From contig JAWXAQ010000021.1 in NCBI GenBank assembly GCA_034439575.1, positions 1 through 45,372 on the forward strand: 45,372 nucleotides of DNA. The letters run 5' to 3'. Shown here one piece after another: positions 3,323 through 30,587 of the stretch. The notes under the pieces were generated by a model. It saw only the letters and a program-made list of their open reading frames with translations, was not told where the DNA came from and ran no database searches. Position 1 is the stretch's first letter. The number at the start of each line of letters is the position of its first letter. Source of the stretch: Leptospira sp. (GTDB lineage Bacteria > Spirochaetota > Leptospiria > Leptospirales > Leptospiraceae). The position numbers were made by a program, and so were the translations under genes.

Positions 3323-3640
3323 ATGCAAGAAAAAGAAACTTTTATAAAGAATAATTTCTGGAAAAAGATCAAAGAAACAGGTGCGAAGTTGCCATTCGTA
3401 AATGATGTGATCGCGATGTATTATTGTTTACTAGACGAAAAAACTTCGCTCAGTGCAAAGGCATCAATCGTTTTTGCTTTGTTATACTTTATCACTCCAA
3501 TAGATGTGATTCCAGATTTTATTTTGGCACTTGGATATACGGATGATGCAACAGTGATAGCATCTACTATCTTACTCTTGAAATCCCAGTTAAAAACAGA
3601 ACATTATGAGAAAGCGAAAGCGTCTCTAGAAAAAGAATGA
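3323..3640 (+). CDS. DUF1232 (YkvA-family) membrane protein
   Basis: Signature ALLYFITPIDVIPDFILALGYTDD. Confidence 0.9.
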   Translation: MQEKETFIKNNFWKKIKETGAKLPFVNDVIAMYYCLLDEKTSLSAKASIVFALLYFITPIDVIPDFILALGYTDDATVIASTILLLKSQLKTEHYEKAKASLEKE

Positions 3641-3641
3641 T

Positions 3642-4562
3642 ATGAAAAAATCCTTAAATGAAATCTCATCGAGTTTTTTAATAAAAGATGATTTTTCATT
3701 TTGGAAAGAAATCCTTTACACTCACCTAACGTATGAACCTTTACCCCTCATTGTAAACAAAAATCATATCATTTCCGCTGCAGCTATGTGGGCTTATGTA
3801 AAAATTTGGAAAGAACATTTCAGAGAAAAAGGTGCGAAGAGTGGTGATACGATACTCCTTGCTCTAAGCGAATCACCAGAATGGATCATGATACTCCTTG
3901 CTTCCTTTTGGGAAAATTTACGGGTCATTCTTTGCGATCCCAAGCAGGTCAGTATTGATACGATCCCTGAAGTCTGGGGTATTTTTAGCGAAGATAAAAA
4001 TATCACAAATTGGACATTCTCAGAGCAATTAACACCTATTTGTTTGCGCGAGCCAAATCAATTATACAAAAATGAATCGATTAAAGAACGTATTTGTTTT
4101 CACTCATATTCGTCCTCTGCAAAGATTTTAGACAAAAACAAGACAGAAAAAAAAATAAATCAAAGTTTAAGTGATAAACAATTCGCAGAATTTATATCAA
4201 AAGTAAAAATAGAAAACAAACCAAAAGGAGTTTTGTCGAGTTTACCATGGTTTTCACCTATTGGATTTTATTTTGATTTTTTTCTAAATTATTTTTCAAA
4301 AAAGGAAATATTTCTCACACAAAAATTTCAAAACCCAAATATAGAATACACAGAACTATTTAATGCTTTTTCCATTGATAAAATTATAACTACTACTCAG
4401 CAAAGCCCTATGATTAATCAATGTGCTTTAATATCTACAAAATCGCACTCTGAAATTGAAATAATCTGCTTCGAAGAACGCGAATTAAATGATATTTCAC
4501 TTTTGTTTATGGATAGTAATTTTTCGTTTTCCGAGAAACGAAATTCTATTTCCAATCAGTAA
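3642..4562 (+). CDS. Degenerate/truncated AMP-binding (ANL, acyl-CoA ligase-like) protein; candidate p-coumarate:CoA ligase homolog
   Basis: A2-like GAKSGDTILLALSESPEWIMILLASFWENLRVILCDP and A4-like VLSSLPWFSPIG. The P-loop is degenerate and C-terminal ANL motifs are absent. Adjacent to the pyp/tal genes. Confidence 0.55.
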   Translation: MKKSLNEISSSFLIKDDFSFWKEILYTHLTYEPLPLIVNKNHIISAAAMWAYVKIWKEHFREKGAKSGDTILLALSESPEWIMILLASFWENLRVILCDPKQVSIDTIPEVWGIFSEDKNITNWTFSEQLTPICLREPNQLYKNESIKERICFHSYSSSAKILDKNKTEKKINQSLSDKQFAEFISKVKIENKPKGVLSSLPWFSPIGFYFDFFLNYFSKKEIFLTQKFQNPNIEYTELFNAFSIDKIITTTQQSPMINQCALISTKSHSEIEIICFEERELNDISLLFMDSNFSFSEKRNSISNQ

Positions 4563-5198
4563 AGAATCGGCATATTCTTCACGTAAATCGAGTATCTGTG
4601 CTCTCAAATTTTCATAAGAATCTATTATATCTTCTGGCGTTGTAGCACCAATATGGTTTTGCAAATATTCTTTATCAGCATATAGACTATCCAATTGTGC
4701 TTCCATCAATGCGATTTCATTGGATTCGTTTTCCATTGAATTTATATCAATTGTGGATTCTATTCGAATTACTTCTCTTATAGGTTTCGTTAAAAATTCT
4801 TGAATTTCTTCCAATTCTGTTTCATGAATTAATGGTTCTATGGCTATTAGTAAAAAAGTAATGAGAGATGCCTTACCAACTAACACAGAGTTTGCTTGAC
4901 CAGATTTGAAATTCTGATATTGAATTTGAGTGTTTGTTTGTTTCCAAAAACATTTCAGTTCTATGTATTTTGTAAACATAGTCACACTGAGTTCTGATTC
5001 CACTTCCACATCCCGAACCAATTCTAGAAAATCTGCGATGATACTTTCAATCCAAGTTTTTGTTTCCTTGAAATCTATATCTGAGATGGAATAATCTTCT
5101 CTCCACGAATGTAAGTTATGTGAAATATCTTCTTTAAAAGCTGGGTCAGTGAATACTGCCTCAACCGCGTTAACATCTATTTTTTTTACTAATTCCAT
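4497..5198 (-). CDS. PYP-associated hypothetical protein (helical N-domain plus C-terminal ExQLxxLY module)
   Basis: Likely start MELVKK at 5198 overlaps the PYP-1 stop (alternative start 5213). C-terminus aligns with ORF 5619-5867. Confidence 0.8.
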   Translation of the reverse strand: MELVKKIDVNAVEAVFTDPAFKEDISHNLHSWREDYSISDIDFKETKTWIESIIADFLELVRDVEVESELSVTMFTKYIELKCFWKQTNTQIQYQNFKSGQANSVLVGKASLITFLLIAIEPLIHETELEEIQEFLTKPIREVIRIESTIDINSMENESNEIALMEAQLDSLYADKEYLQNHIGATTPEDIIDSYENLRAQILDLREEYADSLLIGNRISFLGKRKITIHKQK

Positions 5199-5617
5199 TT
5201 TACAAATATCCAATTGTTCGGTCTTGCAGGTCCCCGATAGAGATGTATTTTTACTGGTGTCGGTTTCATTTTATATGTAAACGTATATGGAAAAATAAGA
5301 TCCATTCTTCTTTCATCTACGCCTTTTTTAAAACTTCCATAAAAAATTTGGTTATTTGTGCAAGGTGCGATTTCTGTGAAAAAATTCTTTCCAAGAGCAG
5401 TTTTTGGATCTACGTTTGCTCGTTCTCCTTCATACTGATTAAACATTTTAATAATGCCTTTATCATCTACGGAAATTACACCAAACTCAAGCTTGTCGAT
5501 CTCAGTAGATGAAAACGTTTGTAGCTTTTGTAATAATTCATCATTAACAAAACGCATCTCACCCTTGGCATAAAATTCTGCTTGTTTTTGAATTTTGGAA
5601 ACAAGATGGTCAGACAT
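5189..5617 (-). CDS. pyp: Photoactive yellow protein (PYP-1), with ~20-aa N-terminal extension
   Basis: FGVISVDDKG..FN..E, GKNFFTEIAPCTN (chromophore Cys69 equivalent), FYGSF, YTFTYKMKPTPVKIHL, WIFVK. AGGAGG RBS upstream. Confidence 0.95.
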   Translation of the reverse strand: MSDHLVSKIQKQAEFYAKGEMRFVNDELLQKLQTFSSTEIDKLEFGVISVDDKGIIKMFNQYEGERANVDPKTALGKNFFTEIAPCTNNQIFYGSFKKGVDERRMDLIFPYTFTYKMKPTPVKIHLYRGPARPNNWIFVKWN

Positions 5618-5618
5618 A

Positions 5619-5867
5619 CTAAACCCCTCCTACCAAACGATTTTTTTCAATAAATACATTTTTTATGTCAGTGATGCTAACATTTGTAGCAGGGACTTTT
5701 CTATAATTTTCTTTCAAGCCATATAAATGAATCAGTTCTTTTTCTAATTCACTAAATTTTAAAACAATTTCTTTAGGATCTGAAGTTCCCAGTTTTTGTT
5801 CTAAAAGTAATTTTTCATCATATAAATAAATTAGCTGATTTTCGAAACTTTCTTTCAATTCTTCCAT
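5619..5867 (-). CDS. Small PYP-associated coiled-coil protein (ExQLxxLY module)
   Basis: 82-aa ORF ending 1 nt before the pyp ATG. Internal repeat ENQLIYLY/EKELIHLY. Confidence 0.8.
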   Translation of the reverse strand: MEELKESFENQLIYLYDEKLLLEQKLGTSDPKEIVLKFSELEKELIHLYGLKENYRKVPATNVSITDIKNVFIEKNRLVGGV

Positions 5868-5955
5868 ATCTGGACTTTAGACTACAAAGAAAAAAAAATG
5901 TTTTGATTTTGAAAAATTTTTATGTCAAATGAAAGAATCTTAGCAAGGAAAATGA

Positions 5956-7404
5956 ATGTCCCTATTCCTCTCTGTCGAAAAATTATACAACATATCACGT
6001 GGAGAATATTATCCAGAATTAAACTTTAATGACTTAAATGCAAGCCACCAAGCTTTATTGGATTATCTTAACAATGATAAAAATGAATTACTTTACGGAA
6101 TAGACACAGGTTTTGGTCCACATGCTTTCAAAAAAAATGAAGATCGGATAGAAAATCAAAAATCACTTATCTACCATCTAACAGCCACCTCCGATACAGA
6201 TTGTATCCAACATGAGGAAGCAAGAGCCGTTTTAGCGGCGAGGATTCATTCTTTAAGTTTGGGTGGAAGTGGCATTTCGCCAAATACTTTGGAACTTTTG
6301 AGATCATTATTGAACCAAAACATTATACCCAAAATTCCAAAAAGAGGCTCACTTTCAGCATCTGGTGATTTAATTCCATTAAGCGCCATTGGTCTTGCAC
6401 TTATGGGCGAGAATGAATGGTCAGGAGAGAACAGGCATAAGGCGCCGTCCCCATCAAATCAGAAACATTCTGAATTCAAAGGTTTACCCTTAGAGCTTAA
6501 ACCCAAAGAAGCTTTATCTCTCACGAACGGAACTAGTTTTACTACCGCATTACTTGCATTACAAGTAGAATCTAGTATTAAACTTCTAAATCATTCCCTA
6601 AACTTACTCGAAATTTTATTTAGTTTTCACTCTGTCTTTGCAGATGCTTTTTTACCAGACCTTCACAAAACAAAGGGATTTAAAGGTCCAATTCAAGTTG
6701 CAAATAGACTTTATCCCGTTATTAAGAAAAATAACAAAGTAAAGGTGGAAGGGAAACGAGTTCAAGATATTTATTCTATTCGTTGTATTCCTCAAATCTT
6801 CGGATCTCTTATAGATGAAATAGATTCATTGAAACAAGTTGTTGAAATAGAATTAAATTCTTTATCGGATAATCCTGTTTACATTGAGAGTGAAAATAGA
6901 TTTGTAGAGGGGGGAAATTTTTATGCTTCTCATGTTAGTTTCGCCGCAGATAGATTACAAAATTGTTTAGCAGTTTTCGCCACTTGGATCGAACGATTCA
7001 TTCAGTATCTATATGACCCAAATCAAAATTTTGATTTTTCACTTTCATTATCTCCAGATCCGGGAAAATATGCAGGACTCTCGGGCTTAGGATTACTTGC
7101 AACTCACCTAACAGCAGAAATAAGAAGGGATTCAATGCCAGGATCTGTTCAATCTCTAACTAGCAACGGTGGTAACCAAGATATAGTTCCCATGGGCGCC
7201 ATTAGTGTTCTTAGAAATAGACGCAGTATCGAATCCCTTTTTTCTTTAACTTCAATTTTTGCTTACTCCATTTACCAAGCTGGTTTTTTGAAAGGTATTA
7301 ATTTCGAAGATAAAAATATCTTTGAAGGTATCAAATCATCGAATAAAGATCGACCCCTTAAGGAAGAATTAAGAAAAATCGAATTATTTTTAAAAAATCA
7401 ATAA
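5956..7404 (+). CDS. Aromatic amino acid ammonia-lyase, probably tyrosine ammonia-lyase (TAL)
   Basis: YGIDTGFG, MIO-forming GSLSASGDL, KEALSLTNGT, QDIYSIRC.PQ, DNP, GGNFY, NQD. Specificity motif LIYHL is TAL-type His-Leu. Adjacent to pyp. Confidence 0.9.
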   Translation: MSLFLSVEKLYNISRGEYYPELNFNDLNASHQALLDYLNNDKNELLYGIDTGFGPHAFKKNEDRIENQKSLIYHLTATSDTDCIQHEEARAVLAARIHSLSLGGSGISPNTLELLRSLLNQNIIPKIPKRGSLSASGDLIPLSAIGLALMGENEWSGENRHKAPSPSNQKHSEFKGLPLELKPKEALSLTNGTSFTTALLALQVESSIKLLNHSLNLLEILFSFHSVFADAFLPDLHKTKGFKGPIQVANRLYPVIKKNNKVKVEGKRVQDIYSIRCIPQIFGSLIDEIDSLKQVVEIELNSLSDNPVYIESENRFVEGGNFYASHVSFAADRLQNCLAVFATWIERFIQYLYDPNQNFDFSLSLSPDPGKYAGLSGLGLLATHLTAEIRRDSMPGSVQSLTSNGGNQDIVPMGAISVLRNRRSIESLFSLTSIFAYSIYQAGFLKGINFEDKNIFEGIKSSNKDRPLKEELRKIELFLKNQ

Positions 7405-7424
7405 ATGATTTAGTAACTAGAGGT

Positions 7425-8657
7425 TCATTCTTCTCTTAAAAATTTATCTGTTTCTCTTGAAATTTCTTTCACTTTATCCTGCATTTTTTTAGTTAGGCGG
7501 TTTAACCAATCTTTCGATTGTTTCATATTTTCACATTCAACTTGAATCTTGTCTGAGAGAGATTGTGTTTCTTCTAAACTTCCATTTATATTAATCACTT
7601 CCCCATACACCTCCCCAGATGTATCTCGAACTCTTTCTGCAATTTCATCTAAGGACTTGGCTTTATCTAGAACGATACTACCGCGAGTTTTCAATTCTGC
7701 TATCGATTGAATCACTTCGGCAATAGTTCCATGTACAACATGAATCTCTGACGCAATGAATTCAAAAGCTTGACCAGATTCAGTGCTCGCATTACTTGCT
7801 AAACCATAGTCTACAATGTTATTTCTAAGTAATTTAGTAATCTCACGAGCGTTTTGTGCTGTTTGTGTCGCAAGTTTCCTGATTTCATCAGCAATGACAG
7901 TAAACCCTTTGCCTTCGCTACCAGAATGTGTTGCTTCAATAGAAGCATTGATAGCTAGCAAATTAGTTTCTTTAGAGACTCCATTAATAAAATCGATCAA
8001 TTTGAGAATACCACCAGATGATTCAGATATCCTTTTAATTGTTTCTCCTGTTTTCTTTACTTTTTCACCACCTTCATGGCTTCGTTCCACGAGTTCTTCC
8101 ATAGTTTTATTGCGACCTTGAATTTCATCAATGACAGTATTCACGATATCAAACATAATATTAATTTCCGTTGAAGTTTTACCAACGGCATCCATAAGGG
8201 TTACTTCCTCCGCTGCGAGTTTAGAAACAATAGTATAAACATTTCCAATATCATGGCCCATTAAAGATATTTTTTGGTTCAATTCTTTTAAATGTGAATT
8301 TACCTCCAAAATAATATCATCTAACGATTGTAAATTTAAATTGATTAAATGAGAATATTCTTCTAAATCAACTCCCACAGCAGCAAGAAGAATCACAGGA
8401 TCAGCCCTTAAAACTTTGGGCTCGATCATCCTTTTGAAAAATTGAAATTTTATCGTTTTTAAAATTAAAGTTGATGCGACTATTCCTAGAAGAAAAAAGC
8501 CAGTGAAGAAATGATTACGAATGAAAAAATCAGGAAAAAAAACAATCCAGAATAATGATAAAAATAATAAAACCAAACAACTAAAAATAATCAAATCAAG
8601 TTGTTTTACATGTTGCAAAACATCATGCCGAGAATTTTTTATTAAATTTTTTTCCAT
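7425..8657 (-). CDS. Methyl-accepting chemotaxis protein (2 TM, no periplasmic sensor domain)
   Basis: Signalling-hairpin motif INGVSKETNLLAINASIEATHSGSEGKGFTVIADEIRKLA; two closely spaced N-terminal TM helices. Confidence 0.92.
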   Translation of the reverse strand: MEKNLIKNSRHDVLQHVKQLDLIIFSCLVLLFLSLFWIVFFPDFFIRNHFFTGFFLLGIVASTLILKTIKFQFFKRMIEPKVLRADPVILLAAVGVDLEEYSHLINLNLQSLDDIILEVNSHLKELNQKISLMGHDIGNVYTIVSKLAAEEVTLMDAVGKTSTEINIMFDIVNTVIDEIQGRNKTMEELVERSHEGGEKVKKTGETIKRISESSGGILKLIDFINGVSKETNLLAINASIEATHSGSEGKGFTVIADEIRKLATQTAQNAREITKLLRNNIVDYGLASNASTESGQAFEFIASEIHVVHGTIAEVIQSIAELKTRGSIVLDKAKSLDEIAERVRDTSGEVYGEVININGSLEETQSLSDKIQVECENMKQSKDWLNRLTKKMQDKVKEISRETDKFLREE

Positions 8658-8767
8658 TCTTATTCCTAAAAATATTTTTTTATGAAATTAGTAAGGCTTA
8701 GACCAGTCAAAAGAGCAGAAAGCGAAGTATTATTTTAGACACATCAGTAAACGGAGAATTTGAATTT

Positions 8768-9139
8768 ATGACAAGTTTTATAGAACCTACTTTTTTGGGT
8801 AAATTGAAGTCATTGTCTCAAGAGGAAGCAGACAGTGAAAATTTTGGAATTGTTAAAGTGGATGAAAATGGAAAGATTCTCTTATATAACAAATTTGAAT
8901 CTGAATTGGCAAACGTACCCATTTCCACAGCCGTTGGTAGAAATTTTTTTACAGAAATTGCCATTTGCACAAACAATAGATTATTTTATGGTAAGTTCAA
9001 AGATGGGATTTTGAAAAAAGAAATGGATGCTACATTTAGTTATGTATTTACCTACAAAATGAAACCCACAAATGTGATGATCCAACTCTACAAAGATAAA
9101 GTTTCAAATACAAATTGGATTTTTGTCAAACCAAAGTAA
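8768..9139 (+). CDS. pyp: Photoactive yellow protein (PYP-2)
   Basis: FGIVKVDENG.ILLYNKFE (Y42/E46 equivalents), GRNFFTEIAICTN (Cys69), FYGKF, YVFTYKMKPT, WIFVK. GGAG RBS. Confidence 0.95.
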   Translation: MTSFIEPTFLGKLKSLSQEEADSENFGIVKVDENGKILLYNKFESELANVPISTAVGRNFFTEIAICTNNRLFYGKFKDGILKKEMDATFSYVFTYKMKPTNVMIQLYKDKVSNTNWIFVKPK

Positions 9140-9169
9140 TACGAATATTAAAATATTCTAAATTTCTTA

Positions 9170-10051
<882 letters not shown>

Positions 10052-10053
10052 AC

Positions 10054-11298
10054 TTATTTCACCGTTTTAATAAAAATTCGTCTAGCGCTCGTATAACGCC
10101 CTGTCCACCATTTTTCGTCTAAACTCTGTATAACGACTCCTCTACTACTAGAAGCATGTACAAAATTACTTTTTCCAAGTGAAAGCCCTACATGCGTAAT
10201 TTTCGATTGATTGGGTGATGCGGAAAAAAACACTAAATCACCAGCATTTAAATTATTTCTTGAAACAGCAGATCCTATCTTTGCTTGATCCCTTGCAGAA
10301 CGAGGGATTAGTTTGACTGGAACATCTATTCCTTTGTCAACTAACACAGACTTAGTGAATCCTGAACAATCTGTCCCAGTCTTTGATGAACCGCCATACA
10401 AATACCTTGTGCCGATCCATCCTTTTACGATTTGATCCAATTTTGATACCGATACACTTTTCCAATCTTTCAGACCTTGTTCTGTAGTTTCTGGGGCATT
10501 TAGATCCTCCATTGTCCACTCTAAACGAGGCCTTTCTCTCATTTCCAATCGACCCATTTCCACAAATTCTGAATTAAAATCGCGCATTGATGACTTAACA
10601 TTCATTATGTTATTTTTATCTTTTTTATTTCCAAATTTAACTATATCCTTGGTTAATTTTTGGCCCAATGATTGGTTCACATTTAAATTTAATTTTTTAG
10701 ATATGTCTAAGATGTTTGCTTCCATCTTCACATCTGTATCTTGATTCATCTTTAAAGGTAAATTTTTCTGTAATAATTTAAGAGTTTCCTCTGTTTCTTT
10801 TTTCTCGGATCTGGAAAGGATAAGTAACCTCATACCTGTTAAAATACTGATTCCATCGTTTCCTCGGAGTATAACATTTGCTAAATAGGAATCTCTATAT
10901 TCCAAAGGAAGTGCCGCGGATTCTGCTTCTTTTAAAGACAAAGCCAATAAAAGAAAATCATTCTCATTACCTTTAAATTTAGAAAGTATAGGTATCAAAT
11001 CTTCTGTCGTTTCAAAACCTATGCCCGCATCTATACCTTTGGATATAAAATAAATATTTCTGGCAAAGTCTTTCGGTGTTATCTCTTCCATCATGGCCCA
11101 TGGGATAAGAGATGATGTTAAATCTTTGATCGCAGTTGTATTCGCCCGATCACCAAGTAATTTTCTAACTTCCGATTTAATTAATAATCTTTGTTGGTTT
11201 GTATAATCCGACTTGGAAAGAGGATCTAAATTTTGTGCCCCTAACACAAATGGGAAAAGTAAAAAAAAGATAAATAATGAGTATTGAATTCGTTTCAT
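10054..11298 (-). CDS. Secreted NlpC/P60 (C40) peptidoglycan endopeptidase
   Basis: Signal peptide; C-terminal Y.YGG...GTDCSGF, GDLVFF, HVGL, FVHASSSRGV. Confidence 0.92.
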   Translation of the reverse strand: MKRIQYSLFIFFLLFPFVLGAQNLDPLSKSDYTNQQRLLIKSEVRKLLGDRANTTAIKDLTSSLIPWAMMEEITPKDFARNIYFISKGIDAGIGFETTEDLIPILSKFKGNENDFLLLALSLKEAESAALPLEYRDSYLANVILRGNDGISILTGMRLLILSRSEKKETEETLKLLQKNLPLKMNQDTDVKMEANILDISKKLNLNVNQSLGQKLTKDIVKFGNKKDKNNIMNVKSSMRDFNSEFVEMGRLEMRERPRLEWTMEDLNAPETTEQGLKDWKSVSVSKLDQIVKGWIGTRYLYGGSSKTGTDCSGFTKSVLVDKGIDVPVKLIPRSARDQAKIGSAVSRNNLNAGDLVFFSASPNQSKITHVGLSLGKSNFVHASSSRGVVIQSLDEKWWTGRYTSARRIFIKTVK

Positions 11299-11379
11299 AT
11301 CTGTTTATACAATCGATATAAAACTTAAGATTGTAAACAAAGTATTTTTATATAAGAGGAATTTGATTTATAATACTCT

Positions 11380-13233
11380 TTAAGATGGCAAATAATCGGC
11401 CTTGAATTGTTTAATTTTTTCATTGGAACAAATATATCCCAATTGAATCAATTTTTCATAACTAAACCATTCTAGAACTCCAAAATTATTTGTAGGAATC
11501 TGTAAAAACAATTCAGAAATTTTTTCAGTCTGACGAATCCTCTCCCTACTGGAAACAAGAATAGATCGAATGATGATATCACCAATTGGTGGGAATTTTG
11601 GTTGGAAAATATTTTTAAAATTAATTAAGTTTCCAAGTTGGACAACAGGATGATCAAGGACACCTGGATTCGACTTATCAAAGTAATTCGATAGATCCTT
11701 ATCTTGGTCTGGATAAATATCCCCAAATACATCCACACTGATAATGGGCCCTGCTCCTCTTTCTTTTAATAACAAGCCTGGAACATTATCCATAACCCCA
11801 CCATCTACATAAACGATACCATCTTCAATAAAAGGTGGAACAATTCCCGGCAAGGAAGTACTCGAGCGCACTGCTTTCCAAAGATACCCATCCGCATGAA
11901 TATGACTTTCCGAATTCGAAAGATCTGTAGATACAGCAAAATAGGGAATCCACAAATCTTCAATTTTGATGGATTGAAAAAATTCCACAATAGCGCGCGT
12001 ATATTTTCCCCCACTAACAAGAGATAGCACAGGTATCGTATATTCATTTAACAAATCTTTATCCACCCAGAGTTTTTTAGCATGTTTACGACCTTCCTCT
12101 GCATCATAACCCATGGCAATGAGAGCCGCAAAAATTGAACCCGCACTCGTTCCAGAAACCATATCAATCGGAATAGAATTTTCCTCAATCGCACGGAGAA
12201 TTCCTAAATGTGCAAATCCTTTGGCTCCACCACCACCTAGCGCAAGACCAATTGATTTTCCAAGGATACCTCGTATCAATCTTTGAATCGTAGAACTATT
12301 CTCCAAATGGATATGATAATGCCTACTCACACGTCTGAGTTTCAAATGGGACTCTGTTCCACTTGGTAAATTGAAAGATGAATGTTGTAATAAAATTAAA
12401 TCCACAGGTTGAATGCGATTTGAAGTGGATTTTATAAATGACTCCATAGGACTTATGTTTGGCGGATCTAAACTATCTTGAATGATAAGAACCCTGTCCG
12501 ATTGGCGGATGCACCGCCTAGACCAATCAGTATCAAGAAAACTTCCAATGTAGAATATAATATTATAATTATTTTCTATATTTTGAAACCAATTCAGAAT
12601 ATTGTGTTCTGTCTCCGTATCTCGCTTACCTACATTTTCAGAAAAAATAGAGGGGAATTCTCTTTCATAAATAAAACATATCTTTCCGAAGGTACTAGCA
12701 TTAGATTTTATAATCTGAATCAAGGGTTCTAAATCAAAATCTTGGTTCGCGGGAAGCAAACAAAAGCTAGATGAATTTGATTTAGTTTTGTTTGTCCGAG
12801 TTCTGGCTCTTGCCAATCTTTCGGCTATAATCGTTGTTACTTGCAGTAATGCCTGAGGATGACTAGATAAAATTTTTAATGCCAATTCTCTGGGAACTCG
12901 TATGAGTTCCGAATCACGAATGGCAATGACGGTTGCGGAACGTGGCTCTCCAGTAAATAGGCTAAGTTCACCAAGGATATCCATCTTGTGAAATTCACCT
13001 TGATCCGATTTCCCATCTGTTCCCGTTTTTTCGTACCGGAGTCGACCTTGGGCGAGAATATACAAATCCATCCCCTTATCACCTTCGCGAAATAAAACAC
13101 TTCCGCTAGGCAAATATTCTCTCACAGTACAATTCATCATTTCTCGGATGACAGCATGGGGAAGATTTCTAAATAAATCTTTTACCGTAATGTACTGGGA
13201 AAGGATTCCTTTTCTTTGTCTCTCTCGGTTCAT
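11380..13233 (-). CDS. cNMP-binding domain patatin-like phospholipase (NTE family)
   Basis: cNMP motifs LFREGD..GELSL..PRSATV; patatin motifs GGGGAKG, GTSAG, DGG. Start taken at MNRERQ. Confidence 0.92.
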   Translation of the reverse strand: MNRERQRKGILSQYITVKDLFRNLPHAVIREMMNCTVREYLPSGSVLFREGDKGMDLYILAQGRLRYEKTGTDGKSDQGEFHKMDILGELSLFTGEPRSATVIAIRDSELIRVPRELALKILSSHPQALLQVTTIIAERLARARTRTNKTKSNSSSFCLLPANQDFDLEPLIQIIKSNASTFGKICFIYEREFPSIFSENVGKRDTETEHNILNWFQNIENNYNIIFYIGSFLDTDWSRRCIRQSDRVLIIQDSLDPPNISPMESFIKSTSNRIQPVDLILLQHSSFNLPSGTESHLKLRRVSRHYHIHLENSSTIQRLIRGILGKSIGLALGGGGAKGFAHLGILRAIEENSIPIDMVSGTSAGSIFAALIAMGYDAEEGRKHAKKLWVDKDLLNEYTIPVLSLVSGGKYTRAIVEFFQSIKIEDLWIPYFAVSTDLSNSESHIHADGYLWKAVRSSTSLPGIVPPFIEDGIVYVDGGVMDNVPGLLLKERGAGPIISVDVFGDIYPDQDKDLSNYFDKSNPGVLDHPVVQLGNLINFKNIFQPKFPPIGDIIIRSILVSSRERIRQTEKISELFLQIPTNNFGVLEWFSYEKLIQLGYICSNEKIKQFKADYLPS

Positions 13234-13363
13234 AAGATCAATAAGAAGTAAATACCAAAGAAAAAGAAAGTGCAAGCAATCCTTTCCAAATCAAACATAA
13301 TTTTATTCAAACCTTCTAAAGAAGATGGAACTTACCTACTCAAGCATAGGTCTAATCCTTAAA

Positions 13364-23738: not shown

Positions 23739-26312
23739 TTAATCTGGAATAGGTAGATCAATGACAAACTTTGCACCGCCTTCCACACGATTAGATGCAT
23801 TCACCACCCCTCCATGTAGTTCAACAATTGATTTTGTAATCGCAAGGCCGAGACCTGTGCCAATTTTTCCTGTGGCTTCCCCTCGATAGAATTTTTGAAA
23901 TACTTTTGAAGGATCGCTCGGTAAACCTTTGCCATTATCTTCTATAGACCAATGCAAGTTTTGGCCAATCCTATTTACTTTGATCCAAATGGTCGAACCT
24001 GAATGAGTATACAAACAAGCATTATATAATAAGTTAAAGATTGCATGTGCAAACAATACTCTATCCAATTCGATTTCAATATTTCCATCTAACATTTCTA
24101 AAACAATCTCATGATTGGATTTATTTTTTCCTAAATAAGAAATAGCATCATGAATGATATCGGCAGGAAAAGTTTTTTCTTTCTTTAATGATAGATATCC
24201 AGATTCAATTCTACTGATATCTAGCAAATTTCCTAAAAGCAAATTTAATATCAATGCACTTTCCTGAATCTCTTCAATGAGACTTCGACTCGCTTCAGGA
24301 TTATTCTGGATATCAGGATCTAACAGAGCCGATGCTGAACCACGAATCGATGTTAACGGAGTTTTTAATTCATGAGAGACTGAGTTAAATACTAAATTGT
24401 ACAATTTTTCGGATTCTTTTAATAAGTATGTTTTTTTGGCTTCTTCAGATAAAGTGTCTCTTTCTAAAGCTAATGAAACTTGGTTTGCGATCGTATTTAG
24501 AAGAATTTCTTGTTCTAAGGTTGGTTCGCTTTCAGAATCTATTTCGATCACTCCCGTTGTTCCGCCCGGAGATAGAAGTGGATAAAAAGTGGATTGAGAA
24601 AGTGAAAGAGTTTCCGTAAATTTACCAGCAGGTTTACCACTTTTAACTGTTAATGTAGCGACCGCTAGTTTTTTATTATCTAAGATCTCAGGTTCAAAGT
24701 GACCTTCCCGAAAAAAAAACAACTTCACATAAAATGGAAATAAACGTTTAAAGAAAGTTTCGCCAATTTTTGTAATTTCATTACTTTGCGATGTTTTAGA
24801 TAGATTTCTCGTTAACTCATAAAGTATTGATAACTTTTCTTCTCTCGATTGTAATTTCATCTCATTTCTTTTTAATTTAGCAGTTAATCCTCCATTGATC
24901 AAGGCAATGAGAATAAAAATCCCAAACATCAATGCATCTTCCAACTTTGAAATATAAAAAGTAAATCTTGGTGGAATAAATAAAAAATTCCAAAACATTG
25001 CAGATAACAATGCCGCAAGTAATACAGGTCCCCTACTAAAAAATATTCCAAGAAGAGCCACATAAAATAAATATAATATAGATATCGGCCAATAACCAAT
25101 ATGAGGAAGCAATGGAAGGTTTAACAGTGTTATAAAAAAAGTTAAACAAACAATGGCAAGGTATTGTCGCAGACTAGAGGAAGGAATCAGTAGTTGGAAA
25201 AAATGAAGCTTTTTTGTTTCTTCACCTATCATAGGAAATATGATAACTTCTACTTCTTTCAATTTTCTTAAAAGCCGTTCGGCGATACTATTTTTAAAAA
25301 AATTCCAAAAACGTGGTTTGGCTGAACCGCCAATCACAAGGCGATTGATGCGTTTACTTTGGATGGCATTGATGATACCTAAAACGGGATCAGATTCATA
25401 AGAATGAATCACTTCAGCTCCGAGCTCCTTAGCGAGTCGAATATGAGAACGAATGGATTCTTCTGAATGAGTATCTTTATGTTCTTCTTCTTCAGAAAAG
25501 AATGCATATAATTCAGCATTTCGTTCCAAAGATAATCTTTTGGCATGGCGAAGTAATGATTTTGAGTGAGGACTAGCACTTATGGCAACAAGAATGTGAT
25601 CTCTACCATGGGGCATTCTTTTTTCAACATATCTGGCTGTATAATTTAATGATAACTCTCGTAAATAAGTAAGGTTTTCTTTTTTAAAGAAATTTTCTTT
25701 CGCGGAATTTATTTTTTCTTCTAAGTAAATTTTTCCTTCAGAAAGTCTTTTCAACAATTCATCCGGTATGATATCAATTAATACTAATTCATCAGCTCTT
25801 TCGAGTATGACATCTGGAATCGTTTCTTTAACAGAACTTTGGATTATTTTTTCAACTGAATCCACTTGGCTTTCTAAATGTTGTACATTTACTGTAGAAA
25901 GTACATTGATACCAGCTTCGAGTAAAGTAAATACATCCTGGTATCTTTTTTTATGCAATGAGCCTGGTATATTTGAATGAGCAAGCTCATCCACTAAAAC
26001 ATATTCGGGTCTTGCAACGAGTACGGCTTCTACATCCATTTCCAACCAAACTTTATGACGATATGTAATTTGTTTTAATGGAATTTCTTCTATATTATAT
26101 AGTAATGCTTTGGTCTCTTCACGACCATGCGTTTCCACTACCCCAATTCTAACATCCGCACCTTCTTTTTGAAGACGTTGTGCTTCATTTAACATCGCAT
26201 AAGTTTTTCCAACCCCAGGCGACATGCCAAAAAAAACTTTAAAAAATCCCTTTTTCTTATCTTCCGATTGCAATGCGATACGAAGATAATCGTCTGGAGT
26301 TCTATCTGACAT
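23739..26312 (-). CDS. kdpD: Sensor histidine kinase KdpD
   Basis: GMSPGVGKTYAML, LVDELAH, USP-like region, 4 TM, SHELKTPL, GTGLGLAI. Confidence 0.96.
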   Translation of the reverse strand: MSDRTPDDYLRIALQSEDKKKGFFKVFFGMSPGVGKTYAMLNEAQRLQKEGADVRIGVVETHGREETKALLYNIEEIPLKQITYRHKVWLEMDVEAVLVARPEYVLVDELAHSNIPGSLHKKRYQDVFTLLEAGINVLSTVNVQHLESQVDSVEKIIQSSVKETIPDVILERADELVLIDIIPDELLKRLSEGKIYLEEKINSAKENFFKKENLTYLRELSLNYTARYVEKRMPHGRDHILVAISASPHSKSLLRHAKRLSLERNAELYAFFSEEEEHKDTHSEESIRSHIRLAKELGAEVIHSYESDPVLGIINAIQSKRINRLVIGGSAKPRFWNFFKNSIAERLLRKLKEVEVIIFPMIGEETKKLHFFQLLIPSSSLRQYLAIVCLTFFITLLNLPLLPHIGYWPISILYLFYVALLGIFFSRGPVLLAALLSAMFWNFLFIPPRFTFYISKLEDALMFGIFILIALINGGLTAKLKRNEMKLQSREEKLSILYELTRNLSKTSQSNEITKIGETFFKRLFPFYVKLFFFREGHFEPEILDNKKLAVATLTVKSGKPAGKFTETLSLSQSTFYPLLSPGGTTGVIEIDSESEPTLEQEILLNTIANQVSLALERDTLSEEAKKTYLLKESEKLYNLVFNSVSHELKTPLTSIRGSASALLDPDIQNNPEASRSLIEEIQESALILNLLLGNLLDISRIESGYLSLKKEKTFPADIIHDAISYLGKNKSNHEIVLEMLDGNIEIELDRVLFAHAIFNLLYNACLYTHSGSTIWIKVNRIGQNLHWSIEDNGKGLPSDPSKVFQKFYRGEATGKIGTGLGLAITKSIVELHGGVVNASNRVEGGAKFVIDLPIPD

Positions 26313-26883
26313 TCAAAAGATTCCTGAGATCAATATTTAAATTCACCACATTCACTCTTTCCCGACCCATCATTCCCAAGATAGAAGATTCGGTATTTTT
26401 GTGAATCAGATTGTTTAATATATCTTTTTCAATTTTGTGTTTGTTACTTAATGTCTGTGCTTGTTCTATTGCGCAAAGGGTTGTGATATGTGGATCTAGA
26501 CCCGAAGCAGACGCATACAATAACTCAGGACACATATTTGTATCGATCCCTCTTTCTCTAAGTTTATTTTTTCTTTCTATAACGAGTAATTTTAAATCTT
26601 CACTTGTTCGACTCAAATTGGATGCACCACTAGGTATCGTCTGATAATGCGTAGCACTTGGTCGACTTTGAAATAAATCTAAATTTGTATAATCTTCTGA
26701 AATAAGCAATGAAGCTACATTTTTATTTTGATTTATCACTAAACTTCCATTCGCTTTCCCTTTAAAAAAAGTATTCGCATACAAAGTTACTAAAATTGGA
26801 TAAATCCCAGCCAAAACAAATAATGAGAAGGCGATAAATCTAATTGATATGATTATATCTCCCGTTGGTTCATTTTTATTCAT
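26302..26883 (-). CDS. kdpC: K+-transporting ATPase subunit C
   Basis: [36 protein letters not shown]. Confidence 0.95.
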
Positions 26884-28934
26884 ATGTTTACTCCGATTAA
26901 CATTAAATCAATGAATTTGATTCCTAAAAAAGGTAATATCATACCACCACCTCCATATAATATCACATTTCTGAAAAGTGCGGAATCTGGGGATTTGGGT
27001 GTATATTTAACACCTCTTAATGCGAGTGGAATCAATGAAGGAATGATAATGGCATTGAAAATCACAGCTGATAAAATAGCATTATCTGGGCTAGATAATT
27101 TCATAATATTGATCGGCGATAATGGGGAAAATAAAGCGGGCAATATGGCAAAGTATTTAGCTATATCGTTTGCTATACTAAACGTTGTTAATGCGCCACG
27201 TGTCATCAATAGTTGCTTTCCGATTTCCACAATTTCTATGAGTTTACTTGGATTGCTATCTAAATCGATCATGTTTCCCGCTTCTCTTGCCGTTTGGGTT
27301 CCCGTATTCATCGCCACACCAACGTCAGACTGTGCTAAGGCAGGAGCATCATTTGTTCCATCACCTATCATCGCGACCAAGAATCCTTTGGCTTGTTCTT
27401 CTTTGATTCGATTGAGTTTTCGTTCTGGGGTTGCCTCAGCAATGAAATCATCAACCCCAGCTTCCGCCGCAATAGCAGCTGCAGTCAGTGGATTATCACC
27501 TGTTATCATAACAGTCTTGATTCCCATTCTTCTTAAATAGGAAAATCGCTCTTTTAATCCTCCCTTTACAATATCTTTAAGCTCAATGACTCCAAGAATT
27601 TCACTTCCTTCCGATACAAGGATCGGCGTACTTCCTTTTTTGGCTATTTCTTGCGCCTTCCAAATCATACCTTCTGAAATATTTCCATTCTGCAGTTCTA
27701 CATGCTTCTTAATTGCATCTAATGAACCTTTTCTGATATTTCTTAAAAGTTTTCCATTCTGCCAAAGTTCAACTCCACTCATCCGTGTTGTCGCAGAAAA
27801 AGGAATCCAGCTAACATCGATATGATTTAAAATTCTCTCTCGAAAAGAAAATCGTTCTTTCGCGAGTATAACAATGGATCTACCTTCAGGTGTCTCATCA
27901 GAAAGAGAAGCTAATTGTGCCGCATCTGCTAATTCTTCTTCCGATTTACCATCCGCTGGGAAAAAATTTCGAGCTTCACGATTTCCTAAAGTTATCGTGC
28001 CTGTTTTATCAAGTAGTAAAACATGGATATCACCTGCAGCCTCGACAGCTTTTCCACTCTTAGCAATCACATTATAATGTATTAATCTTTCCATCCCTGA
28101 TATACCAATTGCACTTAACAATGCTGCAATCGTCGTTGGTATCAGACAAACAAATAAGGCAAGCCAAGTGGAAAGATTAAAATTCCAATCATTTCCAGTT
28201 TCACTACCGACAAATTTCGAAATAGGAACGAGCGAAATCACAGTTAATCCAAAAAGTATTGTGAGCGCAAAAAGTAAAATACCCAGCGCAATTTCGTTTG
28301 GAGTCTTTTGTCTTGATGCTCCTTCAATCATCGCAATCATTTTATCTATAAAACTGGTACCAGGTGAGGATGTAATTTTGATATAAAGACTATCTGATAA
28401 AACTTTAGTTCCACCAGTAACTGCCGAACGATCACCACCACTTTCACGTATAACAGGTGCTGACTCACCTGTTATGGCTGATTCATCTACACTAGCAATT
28501 CCCGAAATCACTTCACCGTCACTTGGGATAAATTCGCCTCCCTTTACAAAAACAATGTCACCTAACTTCAATTCACTTGCAAGAATGTCTATAAAATTCG
28601 TATCTGATATATCTTTTACTTTTTTGCAATTAGCAGAAACTTTTGCTTTTCTTAAACTATCAGCCCTTGCCTTACCTCGACCTTCTGCAAGACTTTCTGC
28701 AAAATTCGCAAAGAGAATTGTGAGTAGTAACCAAACAAAGATAGAAACATCGTTTCCTAATTTTTTTCCAATCATTAGGAAGTATATCATTTGCAATAAT
28801 AAAATGAAAGTTCCAAGCCATACGGCTCCCATCACAGGATTTGTAAAAGCAAACCTAGGTGATAACTTTTGGAAGGATATTTTTAATGCAATGGCTAGTA
28901 AACTTGGGGTAAAAAGTCTATTTTCTTTATTCAT
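26880..28934 (-). CDS. kdpB: K+-transporting ATPase subunit B
   Basis: TGES, DKTGT, TGDN and GDGTNDAP P-type ATPase motifs. Confidence 0.97.
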
Positions 28935-28943
28935 AAATATTAC

Positions 28944-30581: not shown

Positions 30582-30587
30582 ATACAA

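Follow-up and report, generated by a model that had tools for sequence, protein, structure and literature searches.

A composite locus of two separable PYP modules in Leptospira and the hairpin and N-domain protein families that accompany PYP

Organization of the locus

The window, which is the whole stretch of 45,372 nucleotides analyzed here from Leptospira sp. contig JAWXAQ010000021.1, contains a locus of seven open reading frames, two of them PYP genes, arranged around two divergent intergenic gaps. The ORF listing agrees with the initial annotation on all of them, in coordinates as well as strands:

3642-4562, plus strand: A, 306 residues by ORF call, a probable truncated ligase relic
4497-5213, minus strand: B, 238 residues, a two-module PYP-associated protein with a probable true start at 5198
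4758-5174, minus strand: N-domain of B (approximately residues 14-152), helical and ~135 residues long, with a block pLDDT of 67-94 in the AlphaFold2 model
4569-4721, minus strand: hairpin module of B (approximately residues 165-215), as predicted in the AlphaFold2 model
Residues 217-226 of B, minus strand: strands of the tail, a basic β-hairpin in the AlphaFold2 model
5189-5617, minus strand: PYP1, 142 residues, a PYP paralogue with an N-terminal extension
5619-5867, minus strand: D, 82 residues, a small hairpin-module protein
5868-5955: divergent intergenic gap of 88 bp (by ORF coordinates), separating the lyase gene from the D-PYP1-B operon
5956-7404, plus strand: lyase, 482 residues, an aromatic amino-acid ammonia-lyase
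7425-8657, minus strand: MCP, 410 residues
8658-8767: divergent intergenic gap of 110 bp between MCP and PYP2, without the small hairpin gene z
8768-9139, plus strand: PYP2, 123 residues, the common Leptospira type

The locus combines two separable modules. In MCP-PYP2, a sensor-less transmembrane MCP and PYP2 are divergent neighbors, an organization known from earlier work on Leptospira. D-PYP1-B comprises the operon of that name, the divergent gene of what is most likely a tyrosine ammonia-lyase (TAL), and A, probably the dead remnant of the coumarate ligase found with this operon in other phyla. The unknown families are kept with PYP in other genomes, and the two modules lie on different replicons in most relatives.

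Within the operon, the stop of D and the start of PYP1 are 1 nt apart, D being upstream. The true start of B is probably the ATG at position 5198, five codons downstream of the called one, where its orthologues and the 233-residue database copy begin; a start at this site leaves a 6-nt gap between B and PYP1 and no overlap. The 3' ends of A and B overlap by 66 nt, and no che genes were found in the window. A sigma-70 promoter scan returned 25 sites versus 26.2 expected, a total not above chance, with a single promoter-like site in the 5868-5955 gap (plus strand, 5909-5938).

Photoreceptors, chemoreceptor and chromophore enzymes

Both PYP1 and PYP2 match the PYP model TIGR02373 (E 8e-33, 113 bits, and E 1e-30, 106 bits, respectively), with scores below its curated cut-off of 143 bits, and both match solved PYPs (PYP1, E 2e-28, with chain residues 6-123 aligned; PYP2, E 3e-22). 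Glu46 and Cys69 are retained in both, in line with the original assignment of two PYPs, and no further PYP match was detected in the 4.1-Mb genome. PYP2 also keeps Tyr42, has Ile in place of Pro68, and shares 63-81% identity with the single PYP of other genomes. PYP1 has Phe at the Tyr42 position, as in 7/7 orthologues, and this variant is expected to be spectrally distinct.

The MCP shows a PF00015 match (E 2e-26) over residues 191-346, corresponding to the cytoplasmic signaling domain. It has hydropathy windows only at approximately residues 13-29 and from 48-53 onward, which give two N-terminal hydrophobic segments, and is without a sensor domain. Among the 41 genomes of the genus sample (30 PYP-positive and 11 PYP-negative; all Leptospira counts rest on related genomes), it is present in exactly the 30 PYP-positive ones and adjoins PYP2 in 29 of them, in keeping with an MCP dedicated to PYP. 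The wiring of PYP to a chemoreceptor, by contrast, had been taken as undescribed; Leptospira PYPs beside sensor-less chemoreceptors, together with a proposed CetA/CetB-like relay, were already published by Xing, Gumerov and Zhulin (2022, PMC9664959).

The lyase, with a PF00221 match at E 2e-98, is the sole copy in the genome, from which urocanase is absent. The Ala-Ser-Gly triad and the His-Leu pair are kept in 8/8 aligned PYP-locus lyases. Within the genus sample, the gene occurs in 28/30 PYP-positive versus 0/11 PYP-negative genomes and is usually unlinked to pyp. The enzyme is most likely a tyrosine ammonia-lyase, and its dedicated, TAL-type character bears out the earlier assignment.

A yields only a sub-threshold AMP-binding match (E 0.0097). 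Comparison of its family (A4) with the PYP-operon ligases of other phyla (A8) using hhalign gave 99.2% and an E-value of 1e-19, in an alignment that places residues 15-231 of A onto ligase residues 13-254, namely the N-terminal half only. A ends before the C-terminal catalytic half, the segments with the other invariant ligase catalytic blocks are missing, and 4 orthologues show no conservation in the P-loop column. These orthologues are 221-306 residues long and 27-32% identical, compared to 46-82% for the neighboring genes. No copy of A was found in G033, G034 or G031, and A does not resemble the intact ligase y. A is probably what is left of a PYP-operon p-coumarate ligase, truncated and inactive, and not the working CoA ligase of the initial annotation. 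Given this truncation, chromophore activation must come from elsewhere, and the locus is not the self-contained module once supposed. An intact ANL enzyme on contig C16, outside this contig, is a candidate ligase.

Hairpin and N-domain families

D consists of a ~50-residue helical-hairpin module and a short tail. The same module is found in B and in z, the small gene that precedes PYP2 in most Leptospira; z sits in the MCP/PYP2 gap of 25/29 other PYP-positive genomes and is missing at the window locus. In hhalign, D (A1) aligned to the C-terminus of B (96%, E 4e-9) and to z (95.5%, E 1.6e-8), with the pairwise comparisons of D, z and B ranging over 95.5-97.6% probability and E-values of 1.6e-8 to 4e-12. 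The 31 relatives of D in the database are all from Leptospira, and a profile search with B (pLDDT of its AlphaFold2 model, 73) against 1.84 billion proteins gave 405 matches.

All 30 PYP-positive Leptospira genomes and none of the 11 PYP-negative ones have a hairpin gene (z, D or B), which ties the unknown neighbors functionally to PYP more firmly than the sequence alone had allowed. B is found in 24 of the 41 genomes, all PYP-positive; six PYP-positive genomes are without B and D and keep z alone, so the N-domain of B is not essential for PYP2 function. In a single-gene, midpoint-rooted tree of y, the PYP-negative genomes form at least three separate supported clades, indicating at least three joint losses or gains of the PYP/MCP/hairpin/TAL sets. 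The D-B cassette follows gene v in 12/12 single-PYP genomes fetched, where it lies on a different replicon from pyp and far from TAL and ligase. Protein v is an MCP-domain (soluble MCP-tip/Cache) protein present in PYP-negative genomes too, and where D-B is missing (7/7 PYP-negative and 5/5 PYP-positive, B-negative genomes fetched), v is followed directly by the next gene. In the G034 copy of the v/D-B operon, D and B flank PYP1.

The association extends beyond the genus. In a sample of 401 Spirochaetota genomes, PYP is present in 26/27 genomes with the N-domain versus 12/374 without, and the association holds in 4 genera; the 12 include all three sampled genomes with canonical high-scoring PYPs. 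N-domain, hairpin and PYP genes stand together in 13 of 19 N-domain-signature loci (Planctomycetota, Armatimonadota and Leptonemataceae), and PYP was found elsewhere in the genome in 4 of 5 further genomes searched. Of nine ORFs tested directly downstream of these genes, eight encode AMP-binding enzymes, and 5 lyases come next. The hairpin and N-domain families, which travel with PYP across several phyla, are apparently new.

Both families also occur in domain fusions. Nine of 20 HMM-search matches scanned by Pfam combine the N-domain with a CheW domain, of which five carry HATPase_c (P0112, P0121, P0123, P0133 and P0190) and three carry H-kinase_dim (P0112, P0121 and P0222). Seven CheA-like proteins showing no Hpt domain begin with the N-domain, and the motif HMM did not recognize the kinase dimerization hairpin. 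ORF L083 (CheW and H-kinase_dim), the one gene for an N-domain/CheA-like fusion observed within a genome, lies outside any che operon. Hairpin repeats precede a PYP-family domain in 21/148 among the matches listed, and TIGR02373 confirmed 8 of the 10 fusions tested. The chromophore cysteine is missing in 20 of these 21, which points to a structural link with the PYP fold and not to light signaling.

Among the closest known systems, the Leptospira clade-B arrangement (PMC9664959) likewise has a single-domain Cys69 PYP adjoining a sensor-less transmembrane MCP, with TAL and ligase genes sometimes nearby; the window differs by the extra Phe42-type PYP and the missing z. The main text of that paper contains no discussion of the small MCP/PYP hairpin gene, the D-PYP1-B triad or the N-domain family. 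The 12 reported MCP-PYP fusions with a C-terminal PYP (Dohmen et al. 2025, PMC12826048) also link PYP genetically to chemotaxis, whereas here the genes are separate and the fusions are N-domain/CheA-like and hairpin-repeat/Cys-less PYP-like, neither of which is in Table 2 of that paper. In the pyp-pcl-tal operon of Halorhodospira halophila, the photoreceptor gene is grouped with those for the synthesis (lyase) and activation (ligase) of p-coumaric acid (PMC12826048). This set is contained in the string of N-domain, hairpin, PYP, ligase and lyase genes in other phyla; compared to it, the window has a probable relic as ligase, a divergent lyase and two extra partner genes, and the H. halophila operon has no reported partner proteins. 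In Rhodobacter capsulatus, the small acidic PBP (142 residues, pI 3.9, predicted β-sheets), encoded beside the basic Rc-PYP (pI 9.4), binds in a light-dependent manner (bioRxiv 10.1101/2021.06.01.446672). B (pI 4.64) and PYP1 (pI 9.12) show a similar acidic/basic pairing, and stand-alone N-domain proteins are of similar size (133-148 residues), whereas the N-domain of B is all-helical in the AlphaFold2 model. In the Campylobacter CetA/CetB system, CetB binds FAD and senses redox, and we know of no hairpin or N-domain proteins there. The pair, to which Xing et al. drew the analogy (PMC9664959), comprises a soluble PAS sensor and a separate membrane MCP without a periplasmic domain.

Signal relay and alternative explanations

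From co-occurrence, gene order and domain fusions, we infer that D and B are adaptors into chemotaxis, and we lean, with some reserve, toward a composite two-module locus whose hairpin and N-domain proteins relay the PYP signal to the chemotaxis machinery. The lyase would produce p-coumaric acid, a ligase encoded elsewhere, possibly the C16 enzyme, would activate it, and both PYPs would attach the activated chromophore at Cys69. Upon illumination, PYP2 would act on its MCP and the Phe42 variant PYP1 would alter its association with the hairpin proteins. The N-domain of B may pass the signal on to the kinase of the chemotaxis system or to its receptor array, altering swimming reversals. It counts against such a relay that the window has no che genes and that the sole demonstrated light-motility response of Leptospira, as described in PMC9043183, runs via a different receptor. 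Altogether, the D and B families are good candidates for the long-sought signaling partners of PYP.

Alternatively, D, z and B might be maturation or stabilization factors, which hold apo-PYP ready to receive the chromophore from the ligase or protect the thioester, rather than relays. The co-directional strings of other phyla that include PYP, ligase and lyase, the absence of Leptospira hairpin genes whenever PYP and TAL are gone, and the close D/PYP1/B spacing, suggestive of stoichiometric production, all fit such a role. We nevertheless consider it unlikely: the CheA-like kinases fused to the N-domain have no role in chromophore chemistry, the cysteine-less hairpin fusions have nothing to load, and the D-B cassette of single-PYP genomes comes after an MCP-domain gene, at a distance from pyp, TAL and ligase. 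In addition, heterologous production of holo-PYP with TAL and ligase alone has been reported.

It is rather improbable that the PYPs control, for example, gene expression, biofilm or c-di-GMP instead of swimming, with the MCP-like protein as a scaffold. In other organisms, PYPs have been connected with GGDEF/EAL proteins and kinases (PMC12826048), the Armatimonadota locus L077 continues into a PAS-GGDEF-EAL gene, and Table 1 of PMC12826048 gives the function of Leptospira PYP as unknown, with no phototaxis shown. However, PYP2 strictly co-occurs with and adjoins an MCP bearing a full signaling domain, CheA-like proteins occur with a fused N-domain, and the photocycle of L. biflexa PYP is fast (0.35 s; PMC12826048, Table 1), which suits taxis.

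We give still less credence to D and B as accessories of protein v or of general chemotaxis, whose co-occurrence with PYP would reflect shared descent and chance insertion sites. The position of D-B after v, away from pyp, and the persistence of v in PYP-negative genomes would agree with it, but D-B never follows v in the PYP-negative genomes fetched, B is found in no PYP-negative genome, and the joint losses or gains were independent. Furthermore, the two families lie directly beside PYP in Planctomycetota and Armatimonadota, and nearly all N-domain genomes of the phylum sample have PYP. Finally, a self-contained seven-gene light module with A as a working coumarate-CoA ligase is highly improbable in view of the missing catalytic blocks, the divergence and the patchy occurrence of A, even though A is truly homologous to the PYP-operon ligases, lies 1 nt after a DUF1232 gene, and has stayed an open frame in 4 genomes, whose alignment shows 31 invariant columns.

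Gene content of the PYP locus

The PYP locus at 3642-9139 contains seven genes, all present as open reading frames exactly as described in the initial annotation:

3642-4562, + strand: A, ANL-like gene
4497-5213, - strand: B, helical N-domain (~135 aa) followed by a hairpin module (~50 aa)
5189-5617, - strand: PYP1
5619-5867, - strand: D, hairpin module
5956-7404, + strand: lyase
7425-8657, - strand: MCP
8768-9139, + strand: PYP2

Both photoreceptors match TIGR02373, PYP1 (142 aa) with an E-value of 8e-33 (113 bits, model positions 4-122) and PYP2 (123 aa) with an E-value of 1e-30 (106 bits, model positions 14-122), against a curated equivalog cut-off of 143 bits, which Leptospira PYPs attain in none of the 41 genomes of the genus. 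They also align with solved PYPs (E = 2e-28 and 3e-22, respectively), and the columns of Cys69 and Glu46 are kept in both proteins in an alignment to solved PYPs and 27 PYPs. Alignment to the 27 PYPs further showed that PYP2 keeps Tyr42; in PYP1 this residue is replaced by Phe, as it is in all seven PYP1 orthologues. Phe42 of PYP1 is a known natural variant, present in 8.9% of 984 catalogued PYPs (Dohmen et al. 2025, PMC12826048), and gives no ground for exclusion from the PYP family. According to the same catalogue, 16% of genomes have two or more PYPs; no third PYP was found in the window genome. The Tyr42-type and Phe42-type paralogues provide a natural pair for two-colour sensing. The PYP of L. 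biflexa, a PYP2-type protein, is listed at 457 nm with a photocycle of 0.35 s and an unknown function (Table 1, PMC12826048). Outside the genus, five Planctomycetota loci (L068, L070, L071, L072 and L073) encode PYPs with Cys69 kept but Tyr42 replaced by Val and Glu46 by Gln, a natural double variant in the chromophore pocket.

The lyase matches PF00221 with an E-value of 2e-98. All eight aligned PYP-locus lyases, including that of the window, keep the MIO-forming Ala-Ser-Gly triad, and all eight have His-Leu at the aligned position that we take, from Rhodobacter TAL work, to be the substrate-selectivity site. The lyase is confined to PYP-bearing genomes among the 41 of the genus, and no urocanase was found in the 99.98%-complete window genome, in a search whose control was positive in 6 of 14 genomes. 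Although its scores against the NCBIfam equivalogs for HAL, TAL and PAL all fall under their cut-offs, tyrosine ammonia-lyase is the best reading of the lyase sequence.

Gene A had been taken for a working coumarate ligase, which proved wrong. Its product (306 aa) reaches only a sub-threshold match to Pfam AMP-binding (E = 0.0097, 15 bits). The A family aligns with PYP-operon ligases of other phyla (hhalign 99.2%, E = 1e-19) over the N-terminal half only, spanning positions 13-254 of 513 and stopping before the invariant ligase-family blocks. The P-loop column is not kept among the four A orthologues, and everything past the P-loop, including the C-terminal catalytic blocks, is absent. Moreover, the A orthologues are only 27-32% identical, compared to 46-82% for all neighbouring genes. 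Judged from these sequence features, A is a decaying or repurposed ligase stub and is not counted as a working ligase. The DUF1232 gene at 3323-3640 stops 1 nt before the start of A, and the same pairing recurs in a second genome of the genus (G029, locus L014); A may therefore be transcribed together with it.

A shows no similarity (0.3%) to the intact ANL enzyme of the genus, termed y, whose copy on contig C16 of the window genome retains all invariant blocks of its own family. The enzyme y is the obvious candidate ligase for the window genome. Its occurrence in nearly all genomes with or without a PYP gene shows that it is not PYP-specific, and its presence in the latter counts against certainty; a y match is missing only from G012, which lacks PYP, and from the PYP-bearing G031, a 67% complete genome. 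Where y lies beside PYP2 (for example L029:6790-8280), it is lengthened at the C-terminus by ~90 aa that include a carrier-protein-like Gly-Met-Asp-Ser motif, giving frames of 478-518 aa; frames of 390-456 aa are found where PYP2 is absent or has been relocated. The copy of the window genome is at L035:9259-10422 (contig C16). Since the longer frame is found only next to PYP2, the extension appears to be gained and lost together with the MCP-z-PYP2 block, in which z is a small hairpin gene. Predicted PYP operons include a TAL gene in 5% and a ligase gene in 32% of cases (PMC12826048).

The MCP matches PF00015 with an E-value of 1.7e-26 and 93.6 bits, above the 34.6-bit cut-off. Its hydrophobic windows lie solely within residues ~13-71 and no further domain was found; it is a membrane-anchored protein without an extracytoplasmic sensor domain, that is, of the PYP-linked type of Leptospira. 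Leptospira clade-B PYPs have been reported always to adjoin chemoreceptors in which transmembrane regions and signalling modules are present and a sensor domain is lacking, and a CetA/CetB-like relay to CheA was proposed for them (Xing, Gumerov and Zhulin 2022, PMC9664959). Given this adjacency and relay proposal, the core of the wiring from PYP to chemoreceptor, which the initial annotation had regarded as undescribed, was already in print. The interpretation given there, a self-contained light module feeding chemotaxis, is supported in part; the PYP-chemoreceptor core is published, and the ligase claim does not hold. Light-controlled motility has been shown in the genus only for the LprA cAMP system (PMC9043183).

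Locus layout and gene co-occurrence in Leptospira

The GTDB genus comprises 41 genomes, 30 of them with a PYP gene; all were searched and the PYP loci fetched. The usual layout is DUF4842 gene, y, PYP2, z, MCP and a 692-aa gene, found in 23 complete loci and two further loci. The D-PYP1-B triad is limited to seven genomes. It adjoins the lyase and PYP2 in five of these, including the window genome, with no MCP between them in G029, and sits elsewhere in G034 and G031. The y gene of the window genome has stayed at its ancestral position on C16, where MCP, z and PYP2 are all missing. The window locus is thus composed of two modules.

Genomes with a single PYP have their B and D relatives in an operon 3' of a gene termed v (12/12 genomes fetched), and G034 has the order v-D-PYP1-B. 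The D-B cassette is cleanly absent after v in 7/7 genomes without PYP and in 5/5 PYP-bearing genomes without B that were fetched. The v gene encodes a soluble protein of 374 aa, in which an N-terminal MCP signalling-tip segment is followed by PDC/Cache-like domains and no hydrophobic segment, hence a soluble Cache-bearing MCP fragment with its parts in an unusual order. It is kept in 35 of the 41 genomes, including ones without PYP, at 59-79% identity (L030:8926-10050, L048:5389-6507 and 33 others). For the locus in the window, a promoter and terminator scan stayed at chance level.

The occurrence of the locus genes with and without PYP is as follows.

Occurrence of PYP-locus genes in 41 Leptospira genomes with (PYP+) or without (PYP-) a PYP gene
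Gene; PYP+ genomes; PYP- genomes; remark
MCP; 30/30; 0/11; copy of G029 divergent and distant
Hairpin gene (z, D or B); 30/30; 0/11
Lyase (TAL); 28/30; 0/11
B; 24/30; 0/11
Intact ligase y; 29/30; 10/11

Six PYP-bearing genomes manage on z alone. The lyase and pyp genes usually lie on different replicons. A maximum-likelihood tree was built from the single gene y for the 39 genomes that have it, with a midpoint root and some long branches. Branches with good support dictate at least three changes of the PYP- label on this tree; the hairpin genes, PYP, MCP and the unlinked lyase were therefore lost or gained jointly at least three times. Among 401 evenly sampled Spirochaetota, the N-domain occurs in 27 genomes and PYP in 38, with both in 26, the N-domain only in one and PYP only in 12. 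Joint occurrence extends over four genera of this sample, and no N-domain was found alongside its canonical clade-A-type PYPs.

N-domain and hairpin families

Neither B (238 aa) nor D (82 aa) has a family match in family scans. BLASTP gave no alignment between the two, and profiles were needed to reveal their kinship: a helical-hairpin module of ~50 residues recurs in z, in D and at the C-terminus of B (profile-profile probability 95.5-97.6%, E = 1.6e-8 to 4e-12), and z could also be matched to B orthologues by BLASTP with an E-value near 1e-7 against a small local database. The predicted model of B comprises a helical N-domain (residues 14-152, block pLDDT 67-94), then the hairpin and a short basic β-hairpin. 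Foldseek search of this model against the PDB gave nothing at E ≤ 0.001, and in a wide VIA-align search the best Z-score was 8.5, to unrelated helical bundles and no higher than the stated noise of helical models. PDB sequences yielded no meaningful match to the family profiles of the N-domain, D or A, and the protein atlas had no usable match for the N-domain of B. Altogether, these searches found no structural or sequence relative of known function for the N-domain or the hairpin module.

An exhaustive profile search with the B family yielded 405 proteins at E ≤ 0.001. Domain classes were assigned with local HMMs to 148 listed hits, two Leptospira B-family members (P0009 and P0036) being set aside. 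Among these 148, the N-domain stands alone in 83, most of which are 133-186 aa and 13 at least 264 aa; it is joined to one or more hairpins in 26, hairpins stand alone in 15, hairpin repeats precede a PYP-family domain in 21, and three have other arrangements. TIGR02373 matches the C-terminus of eight of ten long hairpin-repeat proteins tested. The chromophore cysteine is absent from 20 of the 21 PYP-like domains fused to hairpins among the listed hits. These proteins (P0081, P0087, P0088, P0093 and 17 further) are 424-1290 aa long, with 3-12 tandem hairpin modules and the PYP-family domain at the C-terminus; Tyr42 and Glu46 are also usually missing, and one of the proteins comes from a Bacteroidota MAG.

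Pfam scanning of 20 hits revealed a CheW domain together with the N-domain in nine, five of which also have HATPase_c and three H-kinase_dim. In seven of the nine, the N-domain is N-terminal and no Hpt domain is shown; in the protein P0133 it comes after an Hpt-HATPase_c-CheW core. A tenth CheA-like case is the L083 ORF, a fusion gene that stands outside any che operon in its genome. The N-domain as a CheA P1 (Hpt) domain was rejected: no His position is invariant, or nearly so, across 40 family members, Pfam Hpt is unmatched, and the fold search returned generic helical bundles (best Z 8.5). Likewise, the hairpin was discarded as a candidate kinase dimerisation domain, as the motif HMM misses all ten long N-domain proteins checked, nine of them CheW-bearing.

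Scanning species-representative genomes with the N-domain signature gave 19 loci from Planctomycetota, Armatimonadota, Kapaibacterium, Leptonemataceae and unclassified MAGs; the scan used a 12-sequence subset that samples the YIELKS[RHQ]W subfamily only, so the 19 loci are not unbiased. N-domain, hairpin and PYP genes lie together in 13 of these loci, mostly in that order and on one strand, and a PYP gene was found elsewhere in the genome in four of five further genomes searched. This recurrence of triads across phyla, with the hairpin gene in every PYP-bearing and no PYP-lacking Leptospira genome, supports conservation of the B and D families with pyp. Just downstream, eight of nine ORFs tested are AMP-binding enzymes, and five lyases come next. 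The recurring gene string is thus N-domain, hairpin, PYP, ligase and lyase, and the window locus is a rearranged form of it. One operon (L078:7698-11538) has N-domain, hairpin, ligase and lyase without a PYP gene, and none was found in its 2.4-Mb MAG. In a Chthonomonadales MAG (L077:794-5258), a fused N-domain/hairpin gene, PYP and ligase are followed by a PAS-PAS-GGDEF-EAL gene; this continuation of the string suggests c-di-GMP output rather than taxis at that locus.

Proposed partner role and surroundings of the locus

Downstream partners are still named the main gap for PYPs (abstract of PMC12826048), which are among the best-studied photoreceptors in biophysics, and the sole candidate binder examined is PBP of Rhodobacter capsulatus (bioRxiv 10.1101/2021.06.01.446672). 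B and D resemble this protein in opposite partner charge and gene adjacency. We tentatively propose that the N-domain (~135 aa) and hairpin (~50 aa) families are direct, light-dependent PYP binding partners in a previously unrecognised three-component photoreceptor-adaptor system; conserved between Leptospira, Planctomycetota and Armatimonadota, it would link PYP with CheA-type kinases and receptor arrays. We consider this possible rather than probable. The account with the best support runs as follows. Both PYPs would receive their chromophore through the lyase and an unlinked ligase. PYP2 would pair functionally with its own MCP, as proposed in print, and PYP1 would act with the hairpin proteins, as PYP2 may do via z in other species; the N-domain of B would provide the link to the chemotaxis kinase or array. 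Prediction of a complex of B, D and PYP1 scored 0.27 against a mark of 0.32 in a run without controls, and weighs neither for nor against contact. Points against this account, or gaps in it, are the six PYP-bearing genomes with z alone, the lack of the N-domain beside canonical clade-A-type PYPs, the mostly Cys-less PYP-like domains fused to hairpins, the position of the L083 fusion gene outside any che operon, and the LprA cAMP system as the sole light-controlled motility shown in the genus. The main rival explanation is that the N-domain and hairpin partners serve PYP maturation.

If true, the proposed adaptor role would settle how stand-alone PYPs transfer their signal, a question decades old. 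Traced outward, the window points to two specific families of candidate partners, both widely conserved, with a genetic rationale toward chemotaxis kinases. The main texts of PMC9664959 and PMC12826048 leave the small neighbour genes unmentioned, and their supplements may list them as hypothetical neighbours; no description of the two families was found in the literature searched on PYP partners. Recognition of these conserved PYP-linked families is of lasting value, as it makes the partner question testable, and directly so in L. biflexa, a non-pathogenic member of the host group with transposon mutagenesis tools to hand (PMC9043183).

No chemotaxis genes were found among ten ORFs scanned in the rest of the window, which has kdpD sensor kinase and kdpA/kdpB potassium-pump genes at 23739-30587 and is otherwise housekeeping (purH, TRAP transporter and aspartate-semialdehyde dehydrogenase). 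Two patatin-like phospholipase genes and an NlpC/P60-like lipoprotein gene flank PYP2 at 9170-13275 and are conserved PYP2 neighbours in window-type genomes; one of the patatin-like genes has an N-terminal region that, judged from length and sequence, resembles a cyclic-nucleotide-binding domain. Four runs of a single wastewater study contain short contigs at 95-100% identity to parts of all seven genes (3600-9200); the runs carry the label RNA-Seq cDNA together with a ‘probably DNA’ flag and so are uninformative on expression. From these matches, a very close relative lives in the sampled wastewater habitat.
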